From positions 2,970,001 to 3,002,000 of the forward strand of contig NC_011979.1 in the NCBI RefSeq assembly GCF_000022265.1: a stretch of DNA of 32,000 nt, written 5' to 3'. Under the pieces are notes generated by a model, which had not been told where the DNA came from, did no database searches, and was given only the letters and a program-made list of their open reading frames with translations. This DNA comes from Geotalea daltonii FRC-32. GTDB taxonomy: Bacteria > Desulfobacterota > Desulfuromonadia > Geobacterales > Geobacteraceae. Below, in pieces: positions 6,284 through 28,950 of this stretch (position 1 is the stretch's first letter; every line of letters begins with the position of its first letter). A program made the translations under genes and the position numbers.

Positions 6284-6307
6284 CTGGATGATCCACGTAA
6301 AAGAAAA

Positions 6308-7059: not shown

Positions 7060-7099
7060 ACGACAAGGCCTCTTTCCGGATGGGAAGGGGCCTTGTCGT
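7060..7099. repeat. Third, diverged member of the GGCCTCTTyCC...GGrAGrGGCC hairpin family
   Basis: ACGACAAGGCCtctttccggatgggaagGGCCTTGTCGT has 11-bp perfect outer arms plus inner pairing. It sits between divergent genes and has no T-tract on the side expected for a terminator. Confidence 0.5.
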
Positions 7100-8590: not shown

Positions 8591-8755
8591 AAGGATAAAG
8601 GGTGAAACTATCTGCTTCATATTTTTTGAACTCGCTGCTTCTGTTCAAATATTTTGAAACATTTTGTTTGAAGGTCTCAGGGTGCGGAATATGTGGATGT
8701 CCCTAATTTTTCCAGCATGGGTGATGCTGCAGCCACATCGAGTCAGGAGTGAAAG

Positions 8756-9736
8756 ATGAAAGTTTTTCTGTCACATGCTTCATCCGAAAAAAAGATGGCG
8801 AAGACTTTGCGGAGAAAGTTAGAGGTTGCCGGGCACGAGGTATCAACTTCAGATTCAATGGAGCAAGGAGATGACATTACCTCAGCCATTGGTAAGTTGA
8901 TTGAGCGTGCGGAAGCCTTCGTCATTATTGTTTCCCCTAAAGGTCTCGGTAATGAACGGCTGATGTGGGAGTGGAGAACGGTACTGGAAAATTCGTGGAA
9001 GGAGCAGGGGAGACCAATCTTCGGGGTCCTCGTGGGTAATGTGGTTCCGCCACCGTTCCTAATGGGGAGGCAGCTTGTAACGATTTCCTCCCTGGATGAT
9101 ATCGATACTGCCGCTGAACAACTTCTGGGGCGCCTTCAAGGAAATCCGATTGACGAAATGGTCGTTGAAGATCTTAAGGCGAGAGGCAGGGAGATCATTT
9201 CTCATTTATCGAGCGAGATCCAAAAATTCGAGCCAAGCCCGGAACAACTAGAAAAGCAGCGGAAACGGCTTCAAGAAAAGATTCATGAACTTTCGGCTGC
9301 ACCGGCCAGTGGGGACCTCGCACGGCTGAACCTGAAGCTGGTCAATGTGATCAAGACATTGGCCGAGAAAGGGCTGCAGGTAGATGGTGCAATTCCGTTA
9401 ATGACTAAGTCGCTTGAAATAATGGAACAGCTTCAGAATACTTCCCCGGAGCAACGGGCTGCGCTACGGACGAGGATTGCGCGGGAAATGGAAAAGGCAG
9501 GTGATTTCCAAGGTGCGCTTGAGCAAGCGTGTCGAGCGCTGCAGGTTTGTGTAGAAGAACTTGATAAGAAAGGCCCTGCTGATACGGAGTGTGACGATAA
9601 CGTTCCGGCCCTGGGATCCCTTCTTGAGCGGATCAAGGAGACTGTCGGGGAGGAAAATGTCCGTGCGGGCCGTTCCCTTGTCTCTTCATTAATTAGCAGA
9701 GCAGCAGACGGCAAAAGCAGGGGGGGGCAACAATGA
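8756..9736 (+). CDS. TIR-domain protein with long helical (coiled-coil/TPR-like) C-terminal region
   Basis: The N-terminus reads MKVFLSHASSEKKMAKTLRRKLEVAGHEV...AEAFVIIVSPKGLGNERLMWEWRTVLE. This matches the TIR pattern (beta-A FLSH, then W-E in the alpha-C position). An RBS (CAGGAG) lies upstream. The stop overlaps the next start (ATGA). Confidence 0.75.
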   Translation: MKVFLSHASSEKKMAKTLRRKLEVAGHEVSTSDSMEQGDDITSAIGKLIERAEAFVIIVSPKGLGNERLMWEWRTVLENSWKEQGRPIFGVLVGNVVPPPFLMGRQLVTISSLDDIDTAAEQLLGRLQGNPIDEMVVEDLKARGREIISHLSSEIQKFEPSPEQLEKQRKRLQEKIHELSAAPASGDLARLNLKLVNVIKTLAEKGLQVDGAIPLMTKSLEIMEQLQNTSPEQRAALRTRIAREMEKAGDFQGALEQACRALQVCVEELDKKGPADTECDDNVPALGSLLERIKETVGEENVRAGRSLVSSLISRAADGKSRGGQQ

Positions 9737-10365
9737 GTTACAAATTCCCTCATCCTGAGCTTCCCAATCCCGACAGTGAGAAATCGATTTTTATCAATTG
9801 TCCCTACGACTCCGAATATGAGCCCTTTTTCGATGCCATCATCTTTTCGGTAGTTGCATCTGGCTTCATCCCGCGAAGCGCCAAGGAATCCGAAATGATT
9901 GCTGTCAGTCGAATTGAAAGAATTCTGCATGCTTTATACACGTCCAAGTATTCCATCCACGACTTATCGAAATGTCGGTATGAAGGAAACCAAATGCTGG
10001 CTCGTTTCAACATGCCGTTGGAACTGGGTCTGGCGATGTCTCGGAGATATCCGGGGGATGGGAAGATCCTGCATAACTGGTTGGTTCTCGTTCCCACTGA
10101 CGCCCCTTACAGCAAATTCGTCTCCGATCTGTCCGGTTTCGATCTGAAGCAGTATCCTGGAAATGAAACTGAATTGATGAGAGCTCTGTTGGCCTGGTTG
10201 ATGGTCCTTCCTGGAGCCCTACCCAGGATCTGCCCAACCCCCGTCATAGAGAATTTTTTGGATTTCAAAGTCCAGAAGAAAAAACTCAAGGAGGAGTGGG
10301 GTGATGATGTACCGTGGAAATTGCTTGTCGAAGCTGCAAAGGCAACGATTCCTGACTTTGCGTAA
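9733..10365 (+). CDS. Nucleoside 2-deoxyribosyltransferase-like / TIR-like (flavodoxin-fold) domain protein
   Basis: KSIFINCPYDSEYEPFF...YTSKYSIHDLS...ARFNMPLELGLAMS follows the beta1 / alpha / (D/N)xxxELGxA layout of NDT and COG4271-type TIR-like domains. The assignment is motif-level only. Confidence 0.5.
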   Translation: MSYKFPHPELPNPDSEKSIFINCPYDSEYEPFFDAIIFSVVASGFIPRSAKESEMIAVSRIERILHALYTSKYSIHDLSKCRYEGNQMLARFNMPLELGLAMSRRYPGDGKILHNWLVLVPTDAPYSKFVSDLSGFDLKQYPGNETELMRALLAWLMVLPGALPRICPTPVIENFLDFKVQKKKLKEEWGDDVPWKLLVEAAKATIPDFA

Positions 10366-10390: not shown

Positions 10391-11278
10391 ATGTCACAAC
10401 AAGTGCACGTAACATTTATTCACGGCCTTGCCAACAAACCTGCACCAAAAGAGCTTGAGCGGATATGGCTGAATGCCCTTTCTGCCCCTGTGGTTGGTGA
10501 TCCAGGTTTTGATCTTGGAGCTGTCGGCGTAACTGCTTCCTTTGTATATTGGGCTGACCTTTTCTATGACAAGCCAATAGCCGCATCGGATTATGAAGCT
10601 GCAGCCAACCGCGCGGAGGAGCTTGATGCAGCAGTGAAACAGGATGTTAAACCGGGATGGGAAGCGAGCCTTATGCTGAAGTTGGCTGATGGAAATCAAG
10701 CGCTCAAGGATGCCCCGGTCGACGAAAGTACGGATGGATATGAACGGATACCGATCCCTTGGTTCATCAAAGAGCGTATGATGGAGCATTTCGTTCGGGA
10801 GGCCCACGACTATCTGTTCAACACGAACGGTATTAGAGACATCATCCGTCGTCGTGTTTTGGATGATTTTGCAAAGGTAGCGCCAGGGACACGCCATGTG
10901 TTGGTCGGGCATAGCCAGGGGACCTTCATAGGGTATGACGTCCTAACTGACGTGATGGATTGCAAGGAAATCGAAGGCTTCATGACCCTCGGAAGCCCGC
11001 TGGGGCTTGATGAAGTACAGGACAAACTTAACTGGTCCTGCAAAAACGGCTTTCCGTCAAAGTTGAAGGGGGACTGGGTGAACGTTTATGATCCGTTTGA
11101 TGTGATCTCTCGACCCGATCCGGCGCTGGCCAATGACTTCAAAAAGAATGGTACAGAAGCTGTGATCGATGTTAAGGAAGAGAATTGGGGCACGTGGCGC
11201 CACTCGGCAACGAAATACTTCAAGGGACCTAAGCTTCGCGCGCAGTTACGTCGGCTGTGCAAACGGGAGGGTGCCTGA
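10391..11278 (+). CDS. Alpha/beta-fold serine hydrolase (lipase/esterase-like)
   Basis: An RBS (GGAGGAG) lies upstream. The protein has HVTFIHGLANKP, the nucleophile elbow VGHSQGT, then TLGSPLG, plus candidate Asp (YDPFD) and His (WRHS) in the S-D-H order. Confidence 0.75.
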   Translation: MSQQVHVTFIHGLANKPAPKELERIWLNALSAPVVGDPGFDLGAVGVTASFVYWADLFYDKPIAASDYEAAANRAEELDAAVKQDVKPGWEASLMLKLADGNQALKDAPVDESTDGYERIPIPWFIKERMMEHFVREAHDYLFNTNGIRDIIRRRVLDDFAKVAPGTRHVLVGHSQGTFIGYDVLTDVMDCKEIEGFMTLGSPLGLDEVQDKLNWSCKNGFPSKLKGDWVNVYDPFDVISRPDPALANDFKKNGTEAVIDVKEENWGTWRHSATKYFKGPKLRAQLRRLCKREGA

Positions 11279-12795
11279 TGGAGCCGGCGTGTTTCCTGAA
11301 AGAGCTTAGGACTGCGGTAGATGAATTCAGGCACACTGATGTTGGTACTCTTCTTGATCAGGTGAACCTAGACGACTTCGACGGTGGACAAATTAAAAAG
11401 ACGCTTACGATCCTTCGTCGCAAGCGGTTGTTCCCCGAGTTGGAGGCAACAACCAAGAAGCTCATTGCCTGCGGGAAAGAAACTCCTCTGGTTCGACGCC
11501 TGCAGGTTCAAGCTCTTATTGACCAGAACATGATCGAGGAGTCTTTAGGTATATTGCAGGCTCTCCCGACGGAGCACCGTAACGATCCTCGTGAGGGACC
11601 TGAGCTCTGCGGTTTATCTGGTCGGGCATTCAAGCAGCTTTATGTGAATGGCGCGGGACGGGACAATTTGGGGAAAGCGATCCGTGAGTATAAGTCCTGT
11701 TGGACTAATCGTATGGGTGACTATCGCTGGCATGGTATCAATCTTGTTGCCCTCTTGGCACGAGCAGAACTGGATGGGATTGACATACCGGGGGGACCGA
11801 ATAGAGAATTGATTGCCAGAGAAATTCTCGGAGAAATCGACGATCTTGGGCAGAATGCTACCATCTGGGACCATGCTACTGCCATGGAAGCCTCCGTCGC
11901 GTTACTGGACACTGATGGGGCTCTCAGATGGGCAAAGGATTACGTTCGACACCCATGTGTCGACGCCTTTGAATTGGGAAGCACACTCCGGCAGATGAAG
12001 GAGGTTTGGAGGCTTTCAGGTACGGAACTCGGCAATAAACTCCTCCCTGTACTCGAATATGAATTTCTTCAGAGACAGGGCGCAGAGTTACAGGTAACAT
12101 CTCTGGCTGTAGCGGACATCGGCGGGTTTCAGGCGGTCTATGGAAATGAAGCTGCCGTACCGATAGCATGGCTGGACAACATGTTTGAGAGATGCAAGGC
12201 GGTGGGACGGGTCATTCGAACCGGAACCGGTGAGGCGATCGGGAGCGGCTTTCTTGTAAGAGGATCTGAACTGTGTCTGGGTTGGGGAGATGCGCCGGTC
12301 TTTGTTACAAATGCGCATGTGGTCAGCGACCGATCAGAAGACAATGCGCCGCTTCGATCGGGGGATGGATCGGTTGAATTTACCCGTATCTATGGGCGAC
12401 CGAGGGTAGAACTCGGAAATATCCTCCATACCTCTGCCAAAGACGAGCTAGACGTAACAGTGTTGCAGGTTAATCCTCCTTTGGGCACCTCAGTACTCAG
12501 CCCATCGTTTTATCCGCCGGTGGTTCCTGGCGAGGGACAGGCACCGCAGCGTATATACGTTATTGGACATCCTGGAGGACGGGAACTTGAAGTTACCCTC
12601 TACGACAATAGCCTAGTAGCCTGTTCTGACAACCGTTTCGTGCACTACCGCAGCCCGACAGAAGGAGGGCACTCAGGATCTCCTGTTTTTACGAGGGAAT
12701 GGAAAGCTATCGCTGTTCATCATCGGAATAGACAGGAGTTACAGGTAAACGAAGGCGTGTTATTTGGGCCAATCTGTGATGTTCTGAAGATTTAG
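11278..12795 (+). CDS. Helical TPR-like (DUF4071/TRAF-binding-domain-like) N-terminal domain fused to a trypsin-like (S1) serine protease
   Basis: The start ATG shares one nt with the preceding TGA. The C-terminal triad reads in order FVTNAHVV (His), DELDVTVLQ (Asp) and TEGGHSGSPVF (Ser). The N-terminal motifs GLSGRAFKQLY...DYRWHGINLVALLA resemble DUF4071, an assignment made from memory. Confidence 0.8.
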   Translation: MEPACFLKELRTAVDEFRHTDVGTLLDQVNLDDFDGGQIKKTLTILRRKRLFPELEATTKKLIACGKETPLVRRLQVQALIDQNMIEESLGILQALPTEHRNDPREGPELCGLSGRAFKQLYVNGAGRDNLGKAIREYKSCWTNRMGDYRWHGINLVALLARAELDGIDIPGGPNRELIAREILGEIDDLGQNATIWDHATAMEASVALLDTDGALRWAKDYVRHPCVDAFELGSTLRQMKEVWRLSGTELGNKLLPVLEYEFLQRQGAELQVTSLAVADIGGFQAVYGNEAAVPIAWLDNMFERCKAVGRVIRTGTGEAIGSGFLVRGSELCLGWGDAPVFVTNAHVVSDRSEDNAPLRSGDGSVEFTRIYGRPRVELGNILHTSAKDELDVTVLQVNPPLGTSVLSPSFYPPVVPGEGQAPQRIYVIGHPGGRELEVTLYDNSLVACSDNRFVHYRSPTEGGHSGSPVFTREWKAIAVHHRNRQELQVNEGVLFGPICDVLKI

Positions 12796-12862
12796 TTTTC
12801 TGATATTGCACCGTCTAACAATCCCAGAATAGGATTTGCATTGTTACAAGGAGATGTCATTT

Positions 12863-13384
12863 ATGGGACTGCCAAGAACGTTCGTAGGATTCAGCAGCAC
12901 TGATATCAATTATTACCGGCTGATGCAAGCGTGGAAGGCACATGAGCATATCGATTTTGATTTCGCCGATTGCCAACTTAATTCAGAAATCAATTCAGAG
13001 GATGAGACTTACATAAAGCGAAAATGCCGGGAGCGCATCAATCTGGCGGGCAAATACGCGATGCTCATTGGCGAGGATACGCGCTATAAGTATAAATATG
13101 TCAAGTGGGAGGCTGAAGTTGCAATCGAAAAGGGCTGCACGATTATCGGGGTGAACCTTGATGGGTGGAGGCGAATCAATGAAGAAACCTGTCCTCCTAT
13201 TCTAAGAAACAGAGGGGTAATGTTTGTTCCCTTTTCGCCGAAGATTGTTGCACATGCTCTTGACCATGCGCAGCTTCATGATGATAAGAATTGGGAATTC
13301 AAGGACAATGTCTATACACAGTTAGGATATGTACTCGACGGAAACCGCGCTGAGCTGCCACCCAGGCCATTTCCATTTCGGTAA
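12863..13384 (+). CDS. ThsB-like TIR domain protein (DUF1863-type)
   Basis: The start is chosen 9 nt after AAGGAG. Motifs: TFVGFSSTDINYYRLM...YKYVKWEAEVAIEKGCTIIGVNL. The ORF opens at 12836. Confidence 0.7.
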   Translation: MGLPRTFVGFSSTDINYYRLMQAWKAHEHIDFDFADCQLNSEINSEDETYIKRKCRERINLAGKYAMLIGEDTRYKYKYVKWEAEVAIEKGCTIIGVNLDGWRRINEETCPPILRNRGVMFVPFSPKIVAHALDHAQLHDDKNWEFKDNVYTQLGYVLDGNRAELPPRPFPFR

Positions 13385-13463
13385 TCTGTCATTCCGACTT
13401 GTTAAACGAGAGTGAATGGTGGAACTGTAAAGTTTACTTGATAATAAATTACGGGAGCGGCTA

Positions 13464-14075
13464 ATGGCCTTATTTCGTGAGTCAACAGTAAGAGATTATG
13501 CCCAAAGAGCTTTGTCTGCTGACAGAATCCGGCGAAATGCATATTCTCTGAGGAAATCAGAAGCCCTGATTTTGGAGTCCATAACTGCGGCTGTGTATGC
13601 GGATCATTTTGACATGTTCCTGTCGCATACTATTCGAGATGCTGAGATAATTTTGGGGATGAAGGAGCTATTTGCGGAAATGGGTTACAAAGTTTACATC
13701 GACTGGATAGATGATCCGCAATTAGACAGGAGAAGTGTCAATAGAAATACTGCTGATAAAATCAGATCGAGAATGCAGCAATGCAACTCCCTGTTTTTCG
13801 TAACAACGCAGAGTTCACTTGATTCGAAATGGATGCCGTGGGAATGCGGATACTTTGACGGTATCAAAAGCAAGGTTGCAATTGTTCCAGTTGTTCAATA
13901 CTCAAGCGATGAAAAATATCGCGGTCAAGAGTATCTCGGGCTGTATCCTTACTGTGAGAAATCACCAAGTAAGGGCGGTAAAGAGTTATTGTACGTGTTT
14001 GAAGATGCTAAGAAGTACCTTCCATATGATGAATGGGTTAAGCAGTCAGAGCCAATAAAATGGTATGAAATTTAA
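13464..14075 (+). CDS. TIR domain protein with about 45-aa N-terminal extension
   Basis: FDMFLSHTIRDAE (beta-A/BB region) and SLDSKWMPWECGYFDG (alpha-C W..E motif). A GGGAG RBS lies upstream. Confidence 0.7.
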   Translation: MALFRESTVRDYAQRALSADRIRRNAYSLRKSEALILESITAAVYADHFDMFLSHTIRDAEIILGMKELFAEMGYKVYIDWIDDPQLDRRSVNRNTADKIRSRMQQCNSLFFVTTQSSLDSKWMPWECGYFDGIKSKVAIVPVVQYSSDEKYRGQEYLGLYPYCEKSPSKGGKELLYVFEDAKKYLPYDEWVKQSEPIKWYEI

Positions 14076-14167: not shown

Positions 14168-15331
14168 ATGCGCATAGCTGGCGGTTTCTACAGAGAAAAT
14201 TGTTGCTTGCCTGCCTGGAATGCAGCATTTGGTTCCGGTGGTCGGGCTGCTGCAGCTATATCTAGGCTTTCTCCGGGGACTGTTCTTCATACATATTGTG
14301 AAGAGTCGGAAGACGTGCATATTCATGCGCTTAAGAAGCTTGGCGTGGATGTTCGCGTGAATTCGCGACCTACAAGTATTGTCTTCGCGTATTTTCATCC
14401 GCTGTCTCGACCCCACATTCAACCACCACCAGACATGCTCACCCTGCAACATATAATTACTATCAGCGATGAAGCCGTGTTGCGTTTTGGGTTTTTGGAG
14501 GGTGATGCAATAGTTGATGCAGATCGAGCCGTTTATGACCCCCAGACGTGGCGGAATCCGGCACCATTCAGGGCAAATGGCTCCCGTGCGAACGAGTTGG
14601 CTATTGTTCTTAACGAGCTGGAACTCAAATCCGCGACCGGCTATCAAGCTGAGCTCTCTCTGGCGGCACATCAATTAATTGAAGATCAGCAGGCAGAGCT
14701 TGTTGTTGTGAAGCGCGGAATCTGGGGTGCAACGGTTTACGAGCGGTCGGGGATAGTCACATTAATTCCCGCATATAGATCATCGCGAGTGTTTAAGATC
14801 GGTACAGGTGACGTGTTTAGCGCAATTTTCGCCCACTACTGGGCAGAGAAAAGACTGTCTGCCGCGGAGGCTGCCGATTTAGCGTCTCGGGCTGTTGCAC
14901 AATACTGCAACAGCGGCCAGTTACCAATTGATCCTGCCGAATTGGGTCAGTTTGCACCCATTCACTGCGGAACGGCAGGGACGGTTCTACTTTTGGGGGT
15001 GGCTGGTAGTCTTGGCCAGCGATACACAATGGAAGAAGCCCGTTTTGTCTTGAAAGGACTCGGCGTGGAGGTTTGCTGTCCTGTTCTGGATGGTGAATTG
15101 AGCTATTCAGCCTGTGCCGCGCTCATTCTTGCAGAGGGTGCAGATGCGGAGATTATCAGGAGCATTGAAAGCGAACCATTGCCAGGTTTACCCATGGTTG
15201 TATTGCAGGAAAAAGGTGTGCGATGTGATGAACTATTGAAAGTCCCTGCTTTAGAGAAAGCTTCAATTGTCGATGATTTTACAACGGCGATGTATACGGT
15301 GACATGGGCCGCATTAGAAACTGATAGCTGA
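14168..15331 (+). CDS. PfkB/ribokinase-family sugar or nucleoside kinase with an extra C-terminal domain of about 100 aa
   Basis: GSGGRAAAAISRL (PfkB N-terminal Gly motif) and FKIGTGDVFSAIFAHYW (the GxGD catalytic-base motif). The ATG at 14168 follows GAGAGGAAA. The ORF opens at a TTG at 14114. Residues after about 290 (TVLLLGVAGSLGQ...) have no counterpart in minimal ribokinases. Confidence 0.7.
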   Translation: MRIAGGFYRENCCLPAWNAAFGSGGRAAAAISRLSPGTVLHTYCEESEDVHIHALKKLGVDVRVNSRPTSIVFAYFHPLSRPHIQPPPDMLTLQHIITISDEAVLRFGFLEGDAIVDADRAVYDPQTWRNPAPFRANGSRANELAIVLNELELKSATGYQAELSLAAHQLIEDQQAELVVVKRGIWGATVYERSGIVTLIPAYRSSRVFKIGTGDVFSAIFAHYWAEKRLSAAEAADLASRAVAQYCNSGQLPIDPAELGQFAPIHCGTAGTVLLLGVAGSLGQRYTMEEARFVLKGLGVEVCCPVLDGELSYSACAALILAEGADAEIIRSIESEPLPGLPMVVLQEKGVRCDELLKVPALEKASIVDDFTTAMYTVTWAALETDS

Positions 15332-15344
15332 GGAAATCACACAG

Positions 15345-16748
15345 ATGGCAGACATATATATTGTGTATGCTAAAGAGAACAAAAAAATAGCAATAATGCT
15401 ATTTGAACTGTTGTCTCAGCAATGGGATGTCTGGATAGACAAAAAAATAGTCGGTTCCTTTCGTCAGGCAATAGAAAAGGAATTACCAGGCTCTGGATGT
15501 GTTGTCGCAGTAAACTCCATGGCAGCACGCGTGAAGGCTACCTATGCTGCAGAGTTGCAGATTGCAGAAAACTACAAAGTTCCCATGATACCTGTAAGAC
15601 TTGATGATTCTGATCTTCCTTACCCATTCGGCGAAAACAGTCATGTTGACATGCAAGACTGGACAGGCGAGGCTGATCACAGCGGAATTATGGAATTAAA
15701 GTGTAAATTGGCATCTGTTGTACCGCCTAGGGTACCTCCTCAACGTCCCAATGCGATAGCTGGCGGAAAAATTCCTTTACCCAATTTATTCATGTCAGTT
15801 TCTTCATTTGAAACACAAATATCACCTGCCGGAGCAGTCAGCGTACTACGGACATTTGAATCAAAAACTATTTTAGTTTCAGCCTATGATTTGGTGCCAA
15901 GATATAAGAAAGACCCTCAAGGCATTATAGATGAGTTGAAAGAGTATCAAGATAATGGCGGTTTTATATTGCTGGACTCTGGAAGCTATGAACAGACACG
16001 TTTTTCAAAAGGAAATTGGCAAAAACAAAAATTATGGAATGTGCTTCACAAAGTGCCGCATGATTGGGCTTTCTGCTTTGACATATTGAAACCGAAACAC
16101 AAGCCAGAAATGGCAATTAGCGAAATAATCGAGGCTGTAGAAAGAGAAAAAGAGTATACCAAGAGCGCTGTACTGCCCATTGTCCATGCTCCAAAATTAA
16201 AATATGGCGGTTACAAGCTAACACATTTCCCTAAGATAATCTGTGAAATTTCAGAAAAACTTCAACCGCCGTTGATAGCAGTACCTGAACGAGAATTAGG
16301 GGAGGGAATCGTTGCCAGGGCAATGGCCATACAGAGCATTAGAAAAGAACTCGATAAATTGCCATTCTACCAACCCCTCCATATTCTAGGAACAGGCAAT
16401 CCATGGAGCATACCTGTTTTTGTTGCTGCAGGCGCTGACTCATTTGATGGCCTTGAGTGGTGCAGAATGGTGGTAGATCGTGATGTGCATCGACTTCACC
16501 ATTTTCAGCATTTTGATTATTTCGTTTGCCAAAAGGGGAAAGCTGAATCACAGATTGTAAAGACAGCTCTTGATGGTAATGATTTTCAAGCAAAAGTTGT
16601 TTTCCATAACCTTGATTATTACTCTTCATTCATGGTTGAAATGAGACAATATTTAGCTGAAAATGATCTTCAGTCATTTATGGTTGGAATAATGGGGAGC
16701 CAGGCAGTAAAGCAATTAAAACAAGAAATTAAAGGGTTGTTTAGATGA
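15345..16748 (+). CDS. Fusion protein: N-terminal TIR domain + C-terminal tRNA-guanine-transglycosylase-fold (TGT/DpdA/Cap10-like) domain
   Basis: TIR part: DIYIVYAKENKKIAIMLFELL...ATYAAELQIAENYKVPMIPV. TGT part: GFILLDSGSYEQ (compare TGT LTDSGG[FY]Q) and LHILGTGNPWSIPVFVAAGADSFDGLEW (compare YLMGVGxP...GxDMFDC). I could not find the CxCxxC...H zinc motif. The gene lies 13 nt after the PfkB stop. Confidence 0.75.
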   Translation: MADIYIVYAKENKKIAIMLFELLSQQWDVWIDKKIVGSFRQAIEKELPGSGCVVAVNSMAARVKATYAAELQIAENYKVPMIPVRLDDSDLPYPFGENSHVDMQDWTGEADHSGIMELKCKLASVVPPRVPPQRPNAIAGGKIPLPNLFMSVSSFETQISPAGAVSVLRTFESKTILVSAYDLVPRYKKDPQGIIDELKEYQDNGGFILLDSGSYEQTRFSKGNWQKQKLWNVLHKVPHDWAFCFDILKPKHKPEMAISEIIEAVEREKEYTKSAVLPIVHAPKLKYGGYKLTHFPKIICEISEKLQPPLIAVPERELGEGIVARAMAIQSIRKELDKLPFYQPLHILGTGNPWSIPVFVAAGADSFDGLEWCRMVVDRDVHRLHHFQHFDYFVCQKGKAESQIVKTALDGNDFQAKVVFHNLDYYSSFMVEMRQYLAENDLQSFMVGIMGSQAVKQLKQEIKGLFR

Positions 16749-17449
16749 ATACTTCTAGCAATAGATTGAAAAATGCCGTTGCTGCTATCTGTCCTGACAT
16801 CCGTGATCGCGTAAGTAAAGCTGTAATTCCTACAGATGAGAAACGCCTCTGGTGGGAGTTATCTTCATGCATCCTGAGCAGCCAAGTCCCATATCCCCTT
16901 TCTACTGCTGCTGCGAATGCAATCAACAATGATGGCATTTTACATGACAAGTGCGTAAGTGCTACGAAACGAGCCAAGCGTTTGGAGGAGCTTTTGATCA
17001 CTCCCGTAGAGGTTGATGGCAAACAACGAGCATATCGCTTTCCTGTTGCACGAGCGCGTCAGTTGGCTGCTGCACATAGTGTGGTGATGGATAGTAAATG
17101 CACACTTCGTGAGCTCGTTAAGAGTTTCGCAACTGCCACTGAAGCCAGATGTTGGTTTGTGAAGCATGTGCCGGGTATCGGTCCGAAGCAGGCAAGCATG
17201 TTCCTGAGAAATGCCGGGGTTAGTTATGATCTGGCAATTCTGGATCGGCATGTGCTGAATTATATGACGAAGCTCGGAATGTATTCCGGTGATAACTATT
17301 CGATCTCCAGCCTTGCACAATATCGCCGCCATGAGGTTGAGCTGAAAAAACATGCTGAAGAGTTGGATTGTCAGGTCGGATTTCTTGATTGGGCTATTTG
17401 GATTGTGATGCGTGTTGCCAATCGTGTCCCGGAGGTTGCCACTGTATGA
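16745..17449 (+). CDS. HhH-GPD DNA glycosylase, Ogg2 (archaeal-type 8-oxoguanine glycosylase)-like
   Basis: VPGIGPKQASMFLRNAGVSYDLAILDRHVLNYM carries the helix-hairpin-helix GIGxK plus the downstream Asp typical of Ogg2 enzymes. ATGA overlaps occur at both ends. Confidence 0.75.
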   Translation: MNTSSNRLKNAVAAICPDIRDRVSKAVIPTDEKRLWWELSSCILSSQVPYPLSTAAANAINNDGILHDKCVSATKRAKRLEELLITPVEVDGKQRAYRFPVARARQLAAAHSVVMDSKCTLRELVKSFATATEARCWFVKHVPGIGPKQASMFLRNAGVSYDLAILDRHVLNYMTKLGMYSGDNYSISSLAQYRRHEVELKKHAEELDCQVGFLDWAIWIVMRVANRVPEVATV

Positions 17450-18036
17450 GCATCGTGACCTTGGTTTCCGGTGGACTTGATTCTACGTTGATTGCCAAAC
17501 TCGCCCAAGAAGAGGGCCTTATCCAGCATCCGCTATTTGTCGATTATGGTCAGAGGGCTCGCGATCAGGAACTGGCTGCCTGCCGCCGTGGCATGAGCGA
17601 ACTTGGTTTGCCGGAACCAAGGGTGGCTGATCTATCCGGTTTTGGGGCGCTTATACACTCAGGCCTTACTGATTCGTCACTTGATATAGTCAAGGATGCC
17701 TTTACGCCGGGTCGTAATATGCTGTTTCTCCTCATTGCAGCAGCGTATGCGGTTCAGGTAAAAGCAGACGCAATTTCAATAGGGCTTCTTCACGAAAGTA
17801 CCAGCCTATTTCCTGATCAAACCAGTGCATTTCTACGTGATGCCGAAGTACTCATCAGACGTTGCATGAACAGGGATATCAAGCTGCTCGCTCCGCTTGC
17901 CTCATTCCTCAAAACAGATGTAGTTGCCCTTGCGAAGTTGAAAAGGATTGGCGCTACCTATTCTTGCCACACAGGGAATGAGGAAACATGCGGTACATGC
18001 ATAGCTTGTCGGGAATTTGAGACGGTGGAGGTTTAA
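17446..18036 (+). CDS. QueC-like PP-loop ATPase (7-cyano-7-deazaguanine synthase family; Cap9-like)
   Basis: MSIVTLVSGGLDSTLIAK carries the SGGxDS PP-loop, and the C-terminal Cys cluster is CHTGNEETCGTCIACREF (C-x7-C-x2-C-x2-C). The start overlaps the OGG stop (ATGA). Confidence 0.8.
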   Translation: MSIVTLVSGGLDSTLIAKLAQEEGLIQHPLFVDYGQRARDQELAACRRGMSELGLPEPRVADLSGFGALIHSGLTDSSLDIVKDAFTPGRNMLFLLIAAAYAVQVKADAISIGLLHESTSLFPDQTSAFLRDAEVLIRRCMNRDIKLLAPLASFLKTDVVALAKLKRIGATYSCHTGNEETCGTCIACREFETVEV

Positions 18037-18037
18037 G

Positions 18038-18502
18038 ATGGGTGGCAACGGTGGTGGCGGTTGGAGCAGCCTTGGCGATTTACGGGCACTGGAGGAAAAG
18101 GCTAAAGCTGCACTTCAGGGCGGAAAGCGAAATGTGTTTATCAGCTTTGCCACAGAAGACATGGACGAGGTCAACCTCCTGCGTGCTCAGGCTAAGAATG
18201 AGAATAGTGATATTGAGTTTAACGATCATTCTGTGCAGGAACCGTACGAAAGCGACCGGGCCGAATATATACGGCGCAAAATCACAGAGAGAATTAACCG
18301 AACTTCGACAACAGTTGTTTACCTCTCGCAAAATACAGCACAGAGTAAATGGGTTAGGTGGGAAGTCGAGAAAAGTTTGGAGTTGGACAAAAGAGTTATT
18401 GCAGTGCATGCAGGGGATAAATTTACCGGAGACAAACCCTCGTGGTTTTCTGAAGGCATTAAAGTAGTATCTTGGTCCAAGCTTGCTGGTGAGTTGACGT
18501 AA
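18038..18502 (+). CDS. ThsB-like TIR domain protein with Gly-rich N-terminal tail
   Basis: The ATG follows GGAGG and lies 1 nt after the QueC stop. The protein starts MGGNGGGGWSSLG, then NVFISFATEDMDEVNLL ... SKWVRWEVEKSLEL. Confidence 0.75.
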   Translation: MGGNGGGGWSSLGDLRALEEKAKAALQGGKRNVFISFATEDMDEVNLLRAQAKNENSDIEFNDHSVQEPYESDRAEYIRRKITERINRTSTTVVYLSQNTAQSKWVRWEVEKSLELDKRVIAVHAGDKFTGDKPSWFSEGIKVVSWSKLAGELT

Positions 18503-19089
18503 TGGTTATAGCGAAGTGTCGTGTCACGCCTGCTATTGCTGCTCTTGCTGGTCGCCGGATTGATGTCTCGGATGCAACTATTCCTCGATTTCCACTACTT
18601 GAGGTTCAACATGTGTATAACAAGCTCCTTTATCGCTTCCGCCGAGAGAATATTCAACATCTTGTCTGCTCTGCAGCATGTGGCGCAGACATCCTTGCAC
18701 TAGAAGCAGCGAGGGAATTGGCAATTCCAGCGACAGTTGTCCTTCCCTTCTCGCCTGATATCTTTCGAGAAGTTTCCGTTACCGATCGACCAGGGGCATG
18801 GGGCAAGCGGTTTGATCATCTTGTGCAGGAAGCCAGTGATCGAGGCCGCCTTATAGACCTTCAACTTGAGGTCAGTGACGAGAACGCATTCACTGTAACC
18901 AATCACCGGATAATTGAATCTGTACTAGACCTTAGGTTTACTCGAAAGTTGGCATTTGTTGTATGGGACGGGCGGTCGCGTGGAGAAGGTGATTCTACGG
19001 CTGAATTTCTCAAAATAGCTTTGTCGCACGGACTGGAGAAAAGATGTGTTATGACAACAGGAAAGAGCTGCAGTGAAATAGTAGAATGA
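18502..19089 (+). CDS. Stand-alone SLOG-superfamily (LOG/YpsA/DprA-like Rossmannoid) domain protein
   Basis: LVCSAACGADILALEAARELAIPATVVLPF resembles the GxGxD...G-IP motif of YpsA/SLOG. FVVWDGRSRGEGDSTAEF resembles the LOG PGGxGTxxE motif. There is a TAATG overlap with the preceding TIR gene. Confidence 0.5.
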   Translation: MVIAKCRVTPAIAALAGRRIDVSDATIPRFPLLEVQHVYNKLLYRFRRENIQHLVCSAACGADILALEAARELAIPATVVLPFSPDIFREVSVTDRPGAWGKRFDHLVQEASDRGRLIDLQLEVSDENAFTVTNHRIIESVLDLRFTRKLAFVVWDGRSRGEGDSTAEFLKIALSHGLEKRCVMTTGKSCSEIVE

Positions 19090-19120
19090 TAAGTGGTGCC
19101 AGAATGATAAGCGGTGCCAG
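19085..19120. repeat. Tandem 18-nt direct repeat (aatgataagYggtgccag x2) spanning the stop codon of the SLOG gene
   Basis: 19085-19102 and 19103-19120 differ at one position. They are followed by the small palindrome ttgcaattgtgcaa. Confidence 0.8.
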
Positions 19121-19206: not shown

Positions 19207-20058
19207 ATGACAGAACTATTCTCCCCACCCCATGACAGGGTAACCCTGCGCAACAGCTTACGCGAAGCCATCGGCAAGACGAGGCGCGATGCCGCGATTT
19301 TCGCCGTTCTTACGGTGATCCTGACACCGATCTTCTTAGCCGGCGCAACCGTTGTCCTCATATTTGCCCTGGCCTTTGTCGATCTGCCGCTGGTCGATAA
19401 TCTCGGCTATGAACGATCTATTGTGACAGGGGTCAACCTTGCACTGGCCTTCATGGCGGCTTCATATTTTCTTAAGCCCAAGGAACCTTATCAGCGGCAC
19501 AAAAGCGATGAAGCGTGGCTGATGATTGCACTGGCCTTGTACTGTGCTCTGTTCCTCTTGTCCTACGGCACGAGCCTGTCCCATTCGCATCCCATCGGCT
19601 TCTGGTCATTGTACCTGGGGATAGCTCTGACCATGCTTGGGTGTATCGGCCATGCATACGAACCACAGGAAGACTATTACCTGGGATGGCTTTCTGGGCC
19701 GGTCCTCGTTGATAATCCATTTACTATTCAGGACGATATTGATCGAGCCCATGTGTCTCTGGGCTTCGCGGTAGCTCTGGCCAATCTGGTTTTGACATCC
19801 TACGATGAAATTTTCGGCAGCAAATGGCTTTGGCAGGGGCTAAAGGAGTCAGAAATATCGGCTTCTGTAGAATTTCTGGAAGCACTGGCAATCAACGATG
19901 GCAGCCGTGCCCGGTCTGTAGTGGCAAAAGTCGGCAAAACTTCCTCCCTCGGGATGATCCGCGCCCTGGTGAAGCTGGAGATGATCAGGATCAATAAAGG
20001 CGTGGTGCGGCTCAGCTTGAAGGGAAGGGAATTTGTCGGTGTTAAGGCCTTTGGGTAG
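19207..20058 (+). CDS. Multi-pass membrane protein of unknown function with soluble C-terminal domain of about 90 aa
   Basis: At least four hydrophobic segments (AIFAVLTVILTPIFLAGATVVLIFALAF; IVTGVNLALAFMAASYF; WLMIALALYCALFLLSY; FWSLYLGIALTMLGCIG). The C-terminus LGMIRALVKLEMIRINKGVVRLSLKGREF looks like a winged helix. Confidence 0.6.
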   Translation: MTELFSPPHDRVTLRNSLREAIGKTRRDAAIFAVLTVILTPIFLAGATVVLIFALAFVDLPLVDNLGYERSIVTGVNLALAFMAASYFLKPKEPYQRHKSDEAWLMIALALYCALFLLSYGTSLSHSHPIGFWSLYLGIALTMLGCIGHAYEPQEDYYLGWLSGPVLVDNPFTIQDDIDRAHVSLGFAVALANLVLTSYDEIFGSKWLWQGLKESEISASVEFLEALAINDGSRARSVVAKVGKTSSLGMIRALVKLEMIRINKGVVRLSLKGREFVGVKAFG

Positions 20059-20187: not shown

Positions 20188-20790
20188 ATGTTCAAGCGCT
20201 TCATTGCCATCAGCGTAATAATCACCCTCATAAGCGGCTGTTCTTCAGCCTATTATGTTCATTTCGACTCCACTCCAGTCGGTGCCACCGTGCAGTTTGC
20301 TGGCTCCACCTGTACAACTCCCTGCAAACTGCCACTGGCAAATACAGATGTGCAACTGGCTCAGGTTTCTTTTGCTGGCCGGGAGCCGAAGTTAGTTCGC
20401 GTCGAGGGGGCGCCGAGCGTGTCTGCGAGGGTAGGGCATGGAGTCTCTTCTGCCACCGCGACCACCTTGGGATACCTGGCTATACCGCTACTGGCGGTCG
20501 GCGGCTTCGGGCTTATTCTCTTTTCGGGTAATGAGACAGATGGCTTTTACAATAGTGATTATCAATACGACCGTGGTGGTTTCTACATCACCATGGGCGC
20601 CCTGGTGTCTGGCGCCACGCTCATGTGGGCATCCAAGAGCATGAAGGATTTCTCTGCCGATTTATATGAGCGGCAGGATGTCTACGTGGCTCTGGATCTG
20701 CCGGAAGCGAAGCGAGAAGATAAGCACAAACCCACACTTTCCGTTGATGATTTTATCGGTCACCGACCATTTCCTGTCACCGGTCGCTGA
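20188..20790 (+). CDS. Lipoprotein with PEGA-like domain and C-terminal hydrophobic segments
   Basis: Signal peptide with lipobox LISGC, a PEGA-like stretch FDSTPVGATVQF, then the TM-like segment LGYLAIPLLAVGGFGLILF. Confidence 0.6.
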   Translation: MFKRFIAISVIITLISGCSSAYYVHFDSTPVGATVQFAGSTCTTPCKLPLANTDVQLAQVSFAGREPKLVRVEGAPSVSARVGHGVSSATATTLGYLAIPLLAVGGFGLILFSGNETDGFYNSDYQYDRGGFYITMGALVSGATLMWASKSMKDFSADLYERQDVYVALDLPEAKREDKHKPTLSVDDFIGHRPFPVTGR

Positions 20791-23897: not shown

Positions 23898-24812
23898 CTA
23901 GAAAAGGTCAAATGTCTTGCTCAGTTTCAACTCGATCCGGAAACCTTCAGAGGGGGTATTGGCCTCAAACCAGCGAGCCATGGGGAACATGGCCGCCAAT
24001 CCTGCCGCGAATCCAGCCGGCCTGTACTTGAACGCCACCTTCGGCCCGGCATACCATTCATTCTTCGAATCTTTCTGGCTTTTGCCGTTCTTCTCGCTCT
24101 GGTCATTCCAGTCGAACTGCGATTCTGCCCCCATGTCGAAATAATTGTTTATGGCGTAGCCCCAGGCGGTCGTGCTCCGGACGTACATGGGTTTACGGTA
24201 GTCATGAGCTCCTTCGGTAAAGGTGTAGACATGGACCTCCTGGTCGATACGGTGCGAGCCTGTCGAGTAGGTAAGACCGATGGCGCCGCCGGTGCCCCAG
24301 GCACCGTTGCCGACGAAGTCGACGCTTTTGTTGCTGACATCCGTCGTCGGCACCACCAGGCCAACATCTACCGCCAGATCAAACGGTGCACCCTTCGCCT
24401 GATTCATGAGCACCTTGTGCAGGGCGATGGCGGTATCACCAATCCAGCCAAGATGATTCCTTTCGCCGTTGACGTTGTTTTTTTTGTAAACGTCGTAGAT
24501 GGGGGTCGCAGTGCGTATGTCGAGCCCCTCCGTGATGCCGTAGCGCAGTTTCACCACCCCGACATTTTTACTTAGCTTGACCGCTTCGCTTACTTCACTC
24601 CCCCCCTTGCGGACACCGTCGGTCTCACAGTACTGGTAATTTAGGAGGACACCGAGCTTTCCTACCGGAAAACCGGTACCGGCAGGACCGAAGGCGGAGA
24701 TGGCCGGGCCGAAGGGCTGGGGGACGGCAGGGGCATCAGCACCCCAGGTAGGGCCCGTGCAGGTGAAAAGGGCCGCGAGGGAAAGCGGGATGATATGCTT
24801 GTTAAATTTCAT
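23898..24812 (-). CDS. Outer-membrane beta-barrel protein (possibly MetA-pathway/phenol-transporter-like family)
   Basis: Signal peptide MKFNKHIIPLSLAALFTCTGPTWGA, an alternating amphipathic beta pattern, many aromatic girdle residues, and a C-terminal ...LSKTFDLF ending in Phe. The family guess is weak. Confidence 0.7.
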   Translation of the reverse strand: MKFNKHIIPLSLAALFTCTGPTWGADAPAVPQPFGPAISAFGPAGTGFPVGKLGVLLNYQYCETDGVRKGGSEVSEAVKLSKNVGVVKLRYGITEGLDIRTATPIYDVYKKNNVNGERNHLGWIGDTAIALHKVLMNQAKGAPFDLAVDVGLVVPTTDVSNKSVDFVGNGAWGTGGAIGLTYSTGSHRIDQEVHVYTFTEGAHDYRKPMYVRSTTAWGYAINNYFDMGAESQFDWNDQSEKNGKSQKDSKNEWYAGPKVAFKYRPAGFAAGLAAMFPMARWFEANTPSEGFRIELKLSKTFDLF

Positions 24813-24921
24813 TGGCTTACTCCTTGGAACTGGGTCCCATTGTGTTGCTATCGAACTGCCGTGAATGAACTGTTATTCCTGCTGACATGGCACCAGTGTG
24901 GTTAGAGGTACTGTAGGTGAT

Positions 24922-25671
24922 TCAGGCTCCCGCGGGGAGCAACTGATAGAGCAAAGTCGTCAAGTTGTTGAAGAGACCGAAAAAAAGGAGGATGCCTACG
25001 GCCATCAGCAGAAGGCCTGTAAAGAATTCCATCTTCCGGATGTGCGACTTGAAGCGTTTGAAAAAATCGAGAAAACTGTGGAACAGCAAGCCGGAGATGA
25101 TAAACGGTATCCCAAGTCCTGCCGCATAGCTGCCGAGCAACAGCATGCTCTTTGCGGTCGAACCCGACGTGCCGGCCGCCATGGCGAGGATGGCCCCGAG
25201 GATCGGGCCGATGCAGGGGGTCCAACCGGCGGCAAAGGCAATCCCCACGAGGAAGGTACCCGCCAGGCCGCGCGGTTTGTTCTGAATGTGGATCCTTTTG
25301 TCCCCCAGCAGGAGCCCGAAGTGGAACAGCCCTGACATATGGATGCCGAAGAGGAAGATCAGCAGGCCGCCGGCCCGCTGCAGCCAGACCAGCCCGTCCT
25401 TCATGACCGACTGGAAGGTGGAGGAGGCGACCCCGGCAAGAGCCCCCATGCCGACGAAAACTGCGGAGAATCCCAGGACGAAGGTCAGGGAGTGGGCGAG
25501 AACGACCAGACGCACCTTCGCTCCCGGGTGTGCCTCCTGCAACTGCCCGAATGAGAGTCCGGTGATGTAGGTGATGTAGGAGGGAATGAGGGGGAGCACG
25601 CAGGGGGAGAAGAAGGAGAGGAATCCCGCCGAGAAGGCGATCCAGAAGGTGATTTCGGGGCCTAAGGTCAT
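24922..25671 (-). CDS. ccdA: CcdA/DsbD-family transmembrane thiol-disulfide electron transporter
   Basis: FLSFFSPCVLPLIPSYITYITG and FAAGWTPCIGPILGAIL are the two conserved Cys-containing TM motifs of CcdA/DsbD-beta. The protein has about six TM helices. Confidence 0.9.
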   Translation of the reverse strand: MTLGPEITFWIAFSAGFLSFFSPCVLPLIPSYITYITGLSFGQLQEAHPGAKVRLVVLAHSLTFVLGFSAVFVGMGALAGVASSTFQSVMKDGLVWLQRAGGLLIFLFGIHMSGLFHFGLLLGDKRIHIQNKPRGLAGTFLVGIAFAAGWTPCIGPILGAILAMAAGTSGSTAKSMLLLGSYAAGLGIPFIISGLLFHSFLDFFKRFKSHIRKMEFFTGLLLMAVGILLFFGLFNNLTTLLYQLLPAGA

Positions 25672-25684
25672 GACGGAATCTCCA

Positions 25685-26191: not shown

Positions 26192-26238
26192 GTCACAACC
26201 TCTCTTTGTGCGGTTTCGGTGCTGTGGAATCGTACAGC

Positions 26239-26272
26239 GCCTCAGGCTGAAGGAGGTCCTTCAGCCTGAGGC
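26239..26272. terminator. Perfect 16-bp-arm hairpin between assT and the thioredoxin gene
   Basis: GCCTCAGGCTGAAGGA-GG-TCCTTCAGCCTGAGGC, followed by TTTTT on the plus strand only. The flanking genes are on the minus strand. Confidence 0.45.
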
Positions 26273-26287
26273 TTTTTGGTAAGACTG

Positions 26288-28938: not shown

Positions 28939-28950
28939 GACATATCTCCT

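Follow-up and report, generated by a model that had tools for sequence, protein, structure and literature searches.

A probable Thoeris-type TIR gene cluster of Geotalea daltonii predicted to use the nucleobase-conjugation machinery of type IV CBASS

INTRODUCTION

Type IV CBASS, a class that reportedly goes back to a classification by Millman in 2020, comprises a CD-NTase and an effector together with the ancillary proteins Cap9, Cap10 and Cap11, which are of the QueC, TGT and OGG type, respectively. The mechanism of this system was described recently (Wassarman et al. 2025, Science 389:1347). Cap9 ligates 7-carboxy-7-deazaguanine to Gly2 of the CD-NTase, whose ‘universal’ N-terminus is M(G/S)G(G/S)GG. 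Gly2 then bears N-terminal 7-amido-7-deazaguanine (NDG), and the modified tail is held in a pocket of Cap10, where it is read by D73, S74, D122 and K154 beside the catalytic pair D248/H226 (Wassarman et al., bioRxiv 10.1101/2025.04.06.647259). Deazaguanylation, in which a 7-deazaguanine base is ligated to the N-terminus of a protein, has been known only since 2025; it has been demonstrated for CD-NTases and proposed for QatB. In the present study we analysed a 32,000-nt stretch of the genome of Geotalea daltonii FRC-32 (the window, to which all positions refer; genes lie on the plus strand unless stated), in which a six-gene operon at 14168-19089 encodes the same ancillary trio together with TIR proteins. 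From comparisons of sequences we consider it likely that this locus is a Thoeris-type TIR-signalling anti-phage system whose signalling TIR protein is under the control of the nucleobase-protein conjugation machinery of type IV CBASS.

Operons of this kind have been noted once before. Two sentences and a figure of a recent preprint concern Thoeris operons with genes for a TIR protein, an effector, cap9, cap10 and cap11 (Yirmiya et al. 2025, bioRxiv 10.64898/2025.12.03.692087, Fig. 6G, Fig. S10B). The passages in question report AlphaFold3 models of ThsB with Cap10 and with Cap9 at interface predicted TM-scores (ipTM) of 0.79 and 0.62, respectively, predict that the TIR protein binds as CdnD does, and attach neither an experiment nor a type number to the operons. 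As far as those passages describe them, these operons and the system in the window very probably belong to the same family. An earlier note on this DNA had not recognised the composition from any named defence system, a statement that the same passages have made outdated, although they give the operons no type name. Where it deals with other Thoeris types, the preprint describes types VII (TIR and SLATT, ThsH) and VIII (TIR and ‘CMP hydrolase’-TPR, ThsI) as using canonical cyclic ADP-ribose (cADPR), with SLATT and TPR-type effectors validated, and it summarises type III Thoeris (van den Berg et al. 2024) as several TIR proteins with a SLOG-containing effector.

The preprint's passages on the Cap9-Cap11 operons contain nothing on a TIR-Cap10 fusion or an MGG motif, both of which are described below, and the word ‘kinase’ is absent from its text. 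The supplements of both 2025 preprints hold nothing on these operons, and no description of the TIR-Cap10 fusion or of its co-varying kinase was found in the literature. TIR is also mentioned nowhere in a survey of the QueC family, in which only 67% of the genes of the Cap9 cluster neighbour a CD-NTase (PMC13082051); some of the other genes may be linked to TIR. What we add here is the conjugation tail on the TIR protein, the pocket residues of Cap10, the fused TIR domain with its co-varying kinase and a map of the effectors.

RESULTS

A glycine-tailed TIR protein within a six-gene operon

The operon begins with g1 (14168..15331), which codes for a kinase of the ribokinase/PfkB fold; its C-terminal alpha/beta domain of ~115 aa (residues ~270-387) is family-specific. 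In g2 (15345..16748) a TIR_2 domain (residues 1-~110) is fused to a Cap10-like TGT TIM-barrel domain (~165-462). The third gene, g3 (16745..17449), codes for an Ogg2-type HhH-GPD N-glycosylase resembling Cap11, and g4 (17446..18036) for a predicted Cap9-like ATP-dependent ligase of the QueC family. These are followed by g5 (18038..18502), coding for a ThsB-type TIR protein, and g6 (18502..19089; Geob_2719), coding for a stand-alone SLOG-fold protein of 195 aa. On direct reading of the sequence, g1 and g2 are separated by a 13-nt gap, g2/g3 and g3/g4 overlap as ATGA, g4 and g5 are 1 nt apart and g5/g6 overlap as TAATG; the six plus-strand genes and five junctions given in the earlier note were exact. 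Its PfkB, TIR-TGT, Ogg2-type HhH-GPD, QueC-like and TIR assignments were borne out by Pfam, PADLOC and NCBIfam profiles. No CD-NTase was matched among the window open reading frames (ORFs) scanned with Pfam and PADLOC, and the PADLOC v2 matches in the window were confined to g2, g4 and the ThsB-type TIR genes.

The g5 protein was matched by Pfam ThsB_TIR (5.5e-25) and PADLOC ThsB (8.6e-15). It starts MGGNGGGG, and this Gly-rich N-terminal tail, MGGNGGGGWSS..., is followed by a helix ahead of the TIR fold. At least 75 of the 79 homologues with a readable start begin MGG[GSN], and E109, in a WxxWE motif, is at least 95% conserved across homologues. The gene comes after QueC in every one of the 80 related loci described below. 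No tail of this kind was found on the other TIR proteins of the window. The N-terminal pattern of type IV CBASS, M(G/S)G(G/S)GG, thus has its counterpart here on a TIR protein, without a CD-NTase. The MGG tail was overlooked by the earlier note; among the sequence features it is the strongest clue to a predicted deazaguanylation, of which g5 would be both the substrate and, by the same prediction, the signal generator.

Ancillary proteins related to Cap10, Cap11 and Cap9

Profiles that matched g2 were Pfam TIR_2 (5.6e-11) and TGT (6.5e-9) and the PADLOC type IV CBASS ‘TGT’ model (2.7e-26). When the TGT domain was compared with PDB sequences, the top match was Cap10 (9NTN), at 4e-8 with a single sequence and 2.5e-11 with a profile, and archaeosine TGT ranked behind it. 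Cap10 D73/S74 align with D211/S212 of g2, both proteins having IDSG.YEAS at this site, while H226 aligns with H346 and D248 with D368. All four residues of g2 are invariant in 18 diverse homologues, and so is E70 of the TIR domain. The CxCxxC zinc motif of tRNA-type TGT is absent from g2 and its family. Using NCBIfam models, g2 scored 16.6 bits against Tgt (cutoff 306.75) and 39.7 bits against TgtA (cutoff 350).

The g3 protein was matched by Pfam Ogg-HhH (6.4e-26). It scored 100.9 bits against the NCBIfam N-glycosylase/DNA lyase model, under the cutoff of 183, and the catalytic-type Lys of GPKQAS and Asp of LDRH are at least 95% conserved among 77 homologues. For g4, matches were obtained with Pfam QueC (2.5e-37) and PADLOC ‘QueC’ (9e-27), and both the SGGLDS PP-loop and the C-x7-C-x2-C-x2-C zinc site are present. 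The matches of g4 among PDB sequences included QueC 2PG3 at 3.5e-17 and Cap9 9NTO at 7e-11; its score against the QueC equivalog TIGR00364 was 120.6 bits, under the cutoff of 150.3. Motifs conserved in the g4 family (LxSGGLDS, YGQ(x)5E, PGRN, FPDQ and CH(x)6CxxCxxC) fit the Cap9 signature of the QueC-family survey with small variants, and better than they fit its Cluster 4 signature (PMC13082051).

According to the earlier note, its proposal would fall if these were housekeeping proteins in a queuosine context. The window scans pointed the other way: g4 and g2 are below the equivalog cutoffs of NCBIfam, the TGT domain is without CxCxxC, and no que neighbours turned up, the names QueD, QueE, FolE and Dpd being absent among the window ORFs scanned.

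Conservation of the core in related loci

Searches with the TIR-TGT fusion gave 687 database matches, and at least 120 among the matches listed were near full length. A scan of one genome per species yielded 159 relatives, and 80 loci were examined by tblastn with the window proteins; their neighbouring ORFs were clustered and then scanned with Pfam. The order TGT-OGG-QueC-TIR was kept in all 80 loci, with OGG between TGT and QueC in 77 and missing in three. The loci span Pseudomonadota, Desulfuromonadales, Clostridiales, Nitrospirae, Acidobacteria, Latescibacterota, Micrarchaeota and others. Sixty of them have the TIR-TGT fusion, and 20, mostly non-proteobacterial, have an unfused TGT and lack the kinase; one locus counted as unfused, from Pseudomonas gessardii (L055), has a fused gene broken by an IS21 insertion. 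Of the 60 fused loci, 53 have a g1 homologue immediately before TIR-TGT; such a homologue occurs neither in the unfused loci nor in the most distant fused ones. In the 80 loci, none of the clusters of recurring neighbours that were examined is a CD-NTase. The conserved core is TGT-OGG-QueC-TIR, with a kinase added in the proteobacterial-type clade.

The same layout was recovered independently from RefSeq gene calls on one rhizobial plasmid, and 13 rhizobial plasmid records, mostly predicted to be conjugative, bear the system. A mobilisable element, represented by 92 blocks of an assembly collection, carries the whole PfkB..SLOG set with overlapping starts and stops (4-nt); its operon reads WYL, ThsB, PfkB, TIR-TGT, Ogg, QueC, ThsB-TIR, SLOG, hydrolase-TPR-S, TPR-S. 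Because the same set recurs on this element, the six-gene unit is real and recurrent, and its arrangement is far beyond chance. No TIR-TGT homologue was found in a phage collection. Integrase, IS21, AbiEii, ArdC and type I restriction-modification genes are other neighbours of the core, and the neighbourhood is mobile or defence-related. The earlier note had asked whether its genes co-occur in such a setting; this held for QueC (80/80), OGG (77/80) and the kinase (53/60 fused loci) and for the mobile and defence context; SLOG was adjacent in only 7/80.

We also examined which genes accompany the core. SLATT_3+SLATT_1 proteins recur in 46 loci and a 420-460-aa MAP3K_TRAF_bd + TPR-S protein (c6) in 44; further recurrent partners are extra ThsB genes, an alpha/beta hydrolase-TPR-S fusion, patatin, a pair of hydrolase and TPR-S-trypsin genes, and the g6-type SLOG gene. 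The SLATT gene follows the MGG-TIR gene in 14 loci and precedes the unfused TGT gene in 12, on the same strand and within 86 nt in all but one, and the TPR-S gene follows the TIR gene at 21 nt or less in 11 loci. Overall, SLATT, TPR-S or patatin is nearby in 71 of the 80 loci and in-operon in at least 37.

Two further sets of loci deserve mention. In L063, L066, L073, L075, L077 and L078, which are non-proteobacterial, SLATT-TGT-OGG-QueC-TIR lies within, or immediately next to, type I restriction-modification genes together with a fourth recurrent gene; reading by eye, we take the type I genes to be hsdM, hsdS and hsdR. In the P. gessardii locus (L055, 6769-10735), TIR-TGT is split at ~residue 220 by an insert with an IS21-type IstB gene, while L004 has a frameshifted MGG-TIR gene and L037 a frameshifted kinase gene. 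These three are cases of natural inactivation, as expected of a costly or toxic system.

The kinase and the SLOG protein

Pfam PfkB matched g1 at 1.2e-6 and was found in 27 of 27 homologues; g1 is 100% identical to a G. daltonii protein annotated ‘carbohydrate kinase’. Its AlphaFold model, with a predicted local distance difference test score (pLDDT) of 91.8, shows a ribokinase fold and, C-terminal to it, a small alpha/beta domain. Using Foldseek, residues 1-265 matched ribokinase, pseudouridine kinase and inositol kinase at E ~1e-12. Residues G22-S23-G24, N149/E152 and G212-T213-G214-D215 are invariant, and we take them to be the GG, NxxE and GxGD motifs of the PfkB family. Since these motifs are invariant, g1 is probably an active kinase.

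In the C-terminal domain of g1, G283, E289-E290-A291, F371, Y376 and W380 are invariant and R285 and D370 nearly so. A HMMER search of 1.84 billion proteins with this domain gave 47 representatives, nearly all with the same kinase architecture. A Pfam scan of 15 isolated domains gave noise, the best match being LSDAT_prok at 0.016 in 2 of the 15, and a profile search of PDB sequences gave chance matches to thermosomes only. A relationship between this domain and the SLOG family of g6 was considered and rejected after a negative hhalign comparison. PF05014 (Nuc_deoxyrib_tr) was not detected in the 27 g1 homologues, and for this reason g1 was not equated with the ‘PF00294-PF05014’ neighbour of QueC ‘Cluster 4’ (PMC13082051). 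From its distribution, g1 is an accessory specific to the clade with the TIR-Cap10 fusion, with which it co-varies, and its C-terminal domain appears in that clade only.

No Pfam, NCBIfam or PADLOC model matched g6. Its AlphaFold model has a pLDDT of 93.7, and the best Foldseek match was YpsA 2NX2 (DUF1273), with E 1.4e-6 and TM 0.59/0.64, followed by ShosA and DprA, with TRPM2 also among the matches. Over YpsA/DUF1273, ShosA and DprA, E ranged from 1.4e-6 to 5e-4 and TM from 0.42 to 0.64. These three proteins are members of the SLOG superfamily. YpsA is called a member in the title of PMC6459960. Because a sequence-profile match is lacking, g6 is assigned to SLOG at the level of fold only; UniRef names its family ‘DUF1273 family’. 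A g6 homologue is adjacent to the core in 7 of the 80 reference loci, and there are many metagenomic copies as well. It comes right after the MGG-TIR gene in L005, L025 and L082-L084 and lies beside patatin in other loci. The earlier note had a SLOG protein closing the operon, and both the fold and the adjacency, through the TAATG overlap, were upheld; g6 is not part of the core and is a frequent but variable accessory. It is probably a ligand-binding or processing partner of effectors.

A different arrangement of the g6 family was seen on metagenomic contigs and contigs of metagenome-assembled genomes (L085, 2031-6540, and L086), where an operon encodes a TIR_2 protein (329 aa), an unassigned 569-aa protein, patatin and a g6-type SLOG protein. 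A SLATT gene is nearby, and neither Cap9 nor Cap10 is present. This operon may be another Thoeris-like configuration that pairs SLOG with patatin. The 326-aa TIR_2 protein encoded upstream in the window was considered as specific kin of the TIR protein in these loci and rejected, the likeness being confined to the TIR domain.

Upstream genes and candidate effectors in the window

The system extends upstream of g1, where the genes at 10391-14075, encoding two ThsB proteins, a TPR-S-trypsin protease and an alpha/beta hydrolase, recur beside the core elsewhere. The nearest gene, u3 (13464..14075), is on the strand of g1, ends 92 nt before it and codes for an extra sensor TIR of the ThsB type (PADLOC ThsB 9.8e-65; Pfam TIR_2 6.3e-5). 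It is preceded by u2 (12836..13384), which also codes for a ThsB-type TIR (PADLOC ThsB 2.9e-41; Pfam ThsB_TIR 2.5e-14). Homologues of u2 with 55-69% identity are near the core in L005, L012, L013, L015, L016, L025, L028, L032, L035-L037, L039, L042 and L055, and a homologue is directly upstream of the kinase gene in L082-L084.

Next to these genes is u1 (11257..12795; probable start ATG 11278), which codes for a TPR-S sensor domain and a trypsin-like serine protease (Pfam Trypsin_2 5.2e-19, TPR-S 3.5e-9). The motifs NAHVV, DVTVL and GHSGSP are legible in its sequence, and we assume that they contribute the His/Asp/Ser triad. A homologue with 78% identity is directly upstream of the kinase gene in L027, and distant homologues (23-24% identity, ~560-620 aa) are encoded two genes downstream of the MGG-TIR gene in L043, L044 and L046. 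The c12 gene (10391..11278) codes for an alpha/beta-hydrolase-like protein with a weak match to Pfam Abhydrolase_6 (0.0023), and its stop codon overlaps the ATG at 11278 as TGATG. A c12 homologue is always immediately upstream of the u1 homologue (L027, L028, L043, L044, L046 and the window). Judging from these gene neighbourhoods, the TPR-S-trypsin protease with its hydrolase partner would be the best effector candidate in the window. Further upstream, a gene for a TIR_2 protein (8756-9736; Pfam TIR_2 8.1e-17) is ATGA-coupled to one for a 210-aa protein without an assigned family (9733-10365; cluster c70, also near the core in L042). Whether this pair belongs to the system is uncertain.

Surroundings of the TIR island

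The G+C content is 41-50% over 13-19 kb, compared with 53-60% in the flanks, which code for a giant cadherin/multihaem protein, an SPFH protein and an arylsulfotransferase-Dsb cluster. Based on the dip in G+C and the nature of the flanking genes, we regard the TIR genes as an island of ~10 kb, and the dip suggests acquired DNA. Scans of the window for repeats, promoters and terminators gave nothing above chance that marks the borders of the island, and no tRNA gene is present in the window. An imperfect 17-nt direct repeat (GCTTCATATTTT..; 88% identity) occurs at 8614-8630 and 19459-19475, at both ends of the TIR island and 10.8 kb apart; it could be an insertion scar or chance. A tandem direct repeat of 18 nt, AGAATGATAAG[T/C]GGTGCC x2, extends across the stop codon of g6 (19083-19118). 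Two predicted membrane proteins are encoded right after g6 (19207-20058 and 20188-20790); neither had a family match or homologues in the 80 related loci.

At the start of the window, a 2093-aa ORF (2-6283), which may run past the window start, has seven cadherin-like beta-sandwich domains together with multihaem cytochrome c7/c3 and Geobacter CxxxxCH motifs. It probably codes for an extracellular electron-transfer or adhesion protein. Downstream of this gene, three copies of a G+C-rich palindromic element, AGGCCTCTTCCC..GGGAGAGGCCT, lie at 6305-6515 and 7060-7099 and are likely terminators or elements like repetitive extragenic palindromes. On the minus strand, 23898-29622 codes for an arylsulfotransferase (ASST, 706 aa), DsbA-like, DsbB, DsbD_TM and AhpC/thioredoxin-like proteins and a MetA-pathway outer-membrane protein. 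This cluster is an ordinary periplasmic sulfotransferase and disulfide-bond module.

DISCUSSION

The earlier note had suggested TIR-based, Thoeris-like signalling coupled to 7-deazaguanine chemistry, a proposal now supported by the gene order in 80 loci, the MGG tail and the Cap10 and Cap9 matches. By homology with type IV CBASS and from the MGG tail, the system could work as follows. The g5 protein would lose its Met, and g4, with ATP, would draw 7-carboxy-7-deazaguanine from the queuosine pathway of the host and ligate it to the alpha-amine of Gly2, giving NDG on g5. The NDG tail would dock in the nucleobase pocket of g2 and leave g5 primed but inactive beside the fused TIR domain. Upon infection, the catalytic Asp368 of g2 might transfer or release NDG-g5, and the freed TIR protein or domains might assemble and turn NAD+ into an ADP-ribose-derived signal; both steps are speculative. 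The signal would activate interchangeable co-encoded effectors, which in other genomes comprise SLATT pore proteins, hydrolases fused to TPR-S, and patatin. In the window, the neighbourhoods point to g6 and to the TPR-S-trypsin protease, paired with the alpha/beta hydrolase, as possible targets. A signal of the cADPR type is a reasonable guess for the family, because the SLATT and TPR-type effectors of type VII and VIII Thoeris use canonical cADPR. The Cap11-like glycosylase g3 would undo the transfer and so limit autoimmunity, after Wassarman et al., and the ribokinase-fold kinase g1 would serve as an accessory of the clade with the TIR-Cap10 fusion.

The speculative parts of this scheme are its trigger, the NDG acceptor and the signal molecule, together with the roles given to the fused TIR domain, the kinase and g6. 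One improbable proposal for the acceptor of NDG is NAD+-derived ribose or ADP-ribose. It rests on the ability of TIR domains to transfer ribosyl from NAD+, on the exchange of a base at N9 by Cap10 and on the gain of a kinase in the fused clade. The product would be a protein-tethered 7-deazaguanine nucleotide on the TIR protein, phosphorylated by the kinase and erased by OGG. If true, the activation switch would be a protein-nucleotide conjugate of a new class.

Several points count against a signalling system of this design. Its anti-phage activity, the NDG on the TIR protein and the signal are predictions from homology, gene order, motifs and in-operon effectors. The g3 protein matched no PADLOC v2 model, and in pairwise comparison g4 scores higher with canonical QueC (65.9 bits) than with the single solved Cap9 (45.4 bits). 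In nine of the 80 loci, the flank examined contains no gene recognisable as an effector. SLATT and the TPR-S protein c6, the commonest effectors of the family, are absent from the window, whose own effector candidates have few co-occurrences (one u1 homologue at 78% identity in L027 and three at 23-24%). In addition, the proposed scheme leaves the roles of g1, g6 and the fused TIR domain unexplained.

The nine loci without a recognisable nearby effector would also suit a self-contained system in which the TIR domains of g5 and g2 are themselves the effectors and deplete NAD+ without a messenger, the SLATT, TPR-S and SLOG genes then belonging to separate, adjacent Thoeris systems. Many nearby effectors are encoded on the opposite strand with a ThsB gene of their own (e.g. 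L013, L015, L032). Moreover, the TIR domain of g2 weakly matches PDB chains of 420-484 aa named ‘TIR domain-containing protein’ (E ~0.005), which are presumably NADase effectors of the SPARTA-type TIR-APAZ kind. However, at least 37 loci, among them those with the minimal, unfused SLATT-TGT-OGG-QueC-TIR form, have a SLATT or TPR-S gene on the strand of the core and translationally adjacent to it. The g5 protein belongs to the ThsB family, a signal-producing class of TIR proteins, and the parallel with the CD-NTase, itself a signal synthase, favours signalling. We therefore regard NAD+ depletion as rather unlikely.

It is unlikely, too, that the six genes do not form one system and that a core of four or five genes merely lies beside unrelated genes in a defence island, with g6 and perhaps g1 independent of it. 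The distribution of the two terminal genes agrees with such a separation: g6 is adjacent in just 7 of the 80 reference loci and its family also occurs in the TIR_2-patatin-SLOG context without Cap9 or Cap10, and g1 is absent from all unfused loci and from the most distant of the fused ones. Against this, g5 and g6 overlap in the window as TAATG, the full PfkB..SLOG set with its 4-nt overlaps is found on a widespread mobilisable element, and many of the top g6 homologues share the length of their longest contig with a listed TIR-TGT match, which suggests that the two may lie on the same contigs. For g1, its place right upstream of the fusion in 53 of 60 loci and a C-terminal domain almost confined to this architecture argue for membership.

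A metabolic or nucleic-acid-modification cluster, for synthesis and insertion of 7-deazaguanine (preQ0/queuosine or Dpd-like) or for nucleoside salvage, is very improbable. Salvage was assumed in the QueC survey for the QueC cluster that neighbours PfkB genes (PMC13082051), g4 keeps the canonical QueC core and zinc site, g1 resembles an active sugar or nucleoside kinase, and RefSeq labels the homologues ‘7-cyano-7-deazaguanine synthase’, ‘DNA lyase’ and ‘carbohydrate kinase’. In contrast, g4 and g2 score below the equivalog cutoffs (120.6 versus 150.3 bits for g4; 16.6 versus 306.75 bits for g2 with Tgt), the TGT domain lacks CxCxxC and is nearest to Cap10, and no QueD, QueE, FolE or Dpd names turned up among the window ORFs scanned. 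Furthermore, each locus has two to five TIR genes, the partner TIR protein bears the MGG tail, and the family sits on plasmids and mobile islands. It is hardly credible that the locus is a degenerate type IV CBASS, with a CD-NTase that has been lost or resides elsewhere: the PADLOC type IV CBASS models for TGT and QueC do match g2 and g4, but no CD-NTase was found in the window scans or among those recurrent neighbour clusters of the 80 loci that were examined, and the slot after QueC is always occupied by a TIR protein with a CD-NTase-type N-terminal tail.

If the preferred interpretation, a Thoeris-type system with a deazaguanylated TIR protein, is correct, the family indicates that the priming machinery of CD-NTases has been transferred to TIR enzymes, which in bacteria, plants and animals form the second major class of proteins that generate immune signals. 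The family occurs in many phyla and on conjugative plasmids. A single regulatory module would serve Thoeris effectors that can replace one another, namely SLATT, TPR-S fusions, patatin and a trypsin-like protease. The TIR version would also provide a second, independent system in which to find the acceptor of the Cap10 transfer, which is sought in CBASS too, with extra co-varying clues in the TIR domain fused to Cap10, the dedicated kinase and the near-universal OGG.

In comparison with type IV CBASS, the locus shares the Gly-rich tail M-G-G-(G/S/N) on the signalling enzyme, the counterparts of Cap10 D73, S74, H226 and D248, a TGT without CxCxxC and a QueC with zinc site and PP-loop; SLATT effectors occur in CBASS as well. 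In contrast to it, a ThsB-type TIR protein stands in for the CD-NTase in every locus, and the proteobacterial-type clade has a second TIR domain fused to Cap10 and a ribokinase-fold kinase. OGG is present in 77 of the 80 loci, compared with about one third of type IV CBASS, and the expected signal is derived from NAD+ instead of being a cyclic oligonucleotide. Because the defining CD-NTase is absent, the locus is not a member of type IV CBASS. Type II CBASS, and Thoeris with Cap2/Cap3, resemble it in that ancillary enzymes covalently prime the signalling enzyme at one terminus and a reversing enzyme is present. However, Cap2/Cap3 perform a C-terminal, E1/E2-type ubiquitin-like conjugation whereas N-terminal nucleobase ligation is predicted here, and the proteins are not homologous. 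In QatABCD, a QueC-family enzyme of a defence system (QatC) is likewise predicted to deazaguanylate the glycine N-terminus of a partner (QatB). QatC, though, is remodelled, has ~400 aa and lacks the canonical QueC motifs (PMC13082051), while g4 is a minimal Cap9/QueC-like protein, and QatABCD has no TGT, OGG or TIR.

Among Thoeris systems, the combination of TIR, effector and cap9/cap10/cap11 genes in one operon noted by Yirmiya et al. is found here as well, with the local effectors being candidates only. The Thoeris character is seen in the ThsB-type TIR with its conserved Glu (E109 of g5), and u2 and u3 are ThsB proteins too. With type III Thoeris the cluster shares, by description only, several TIR genes and a SLOG-fold protein; g6, however, is a bare SLOG domain of 195 aa with no fused effector domain. 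As in types VII and VIII, SLATT (46 loci) and TPR-S (44 loci) are the commonest partners across the family, often in-operon and with extra ThsB genes. Plain type VII and VIII systems lack the Cap9-Cap11 layer, and the window differs from them in having neither of these effectors. Its TPR-S domain is instead fused to a trypsin-like protease, which recalls the caspase-like protease of type IV Thoeris.

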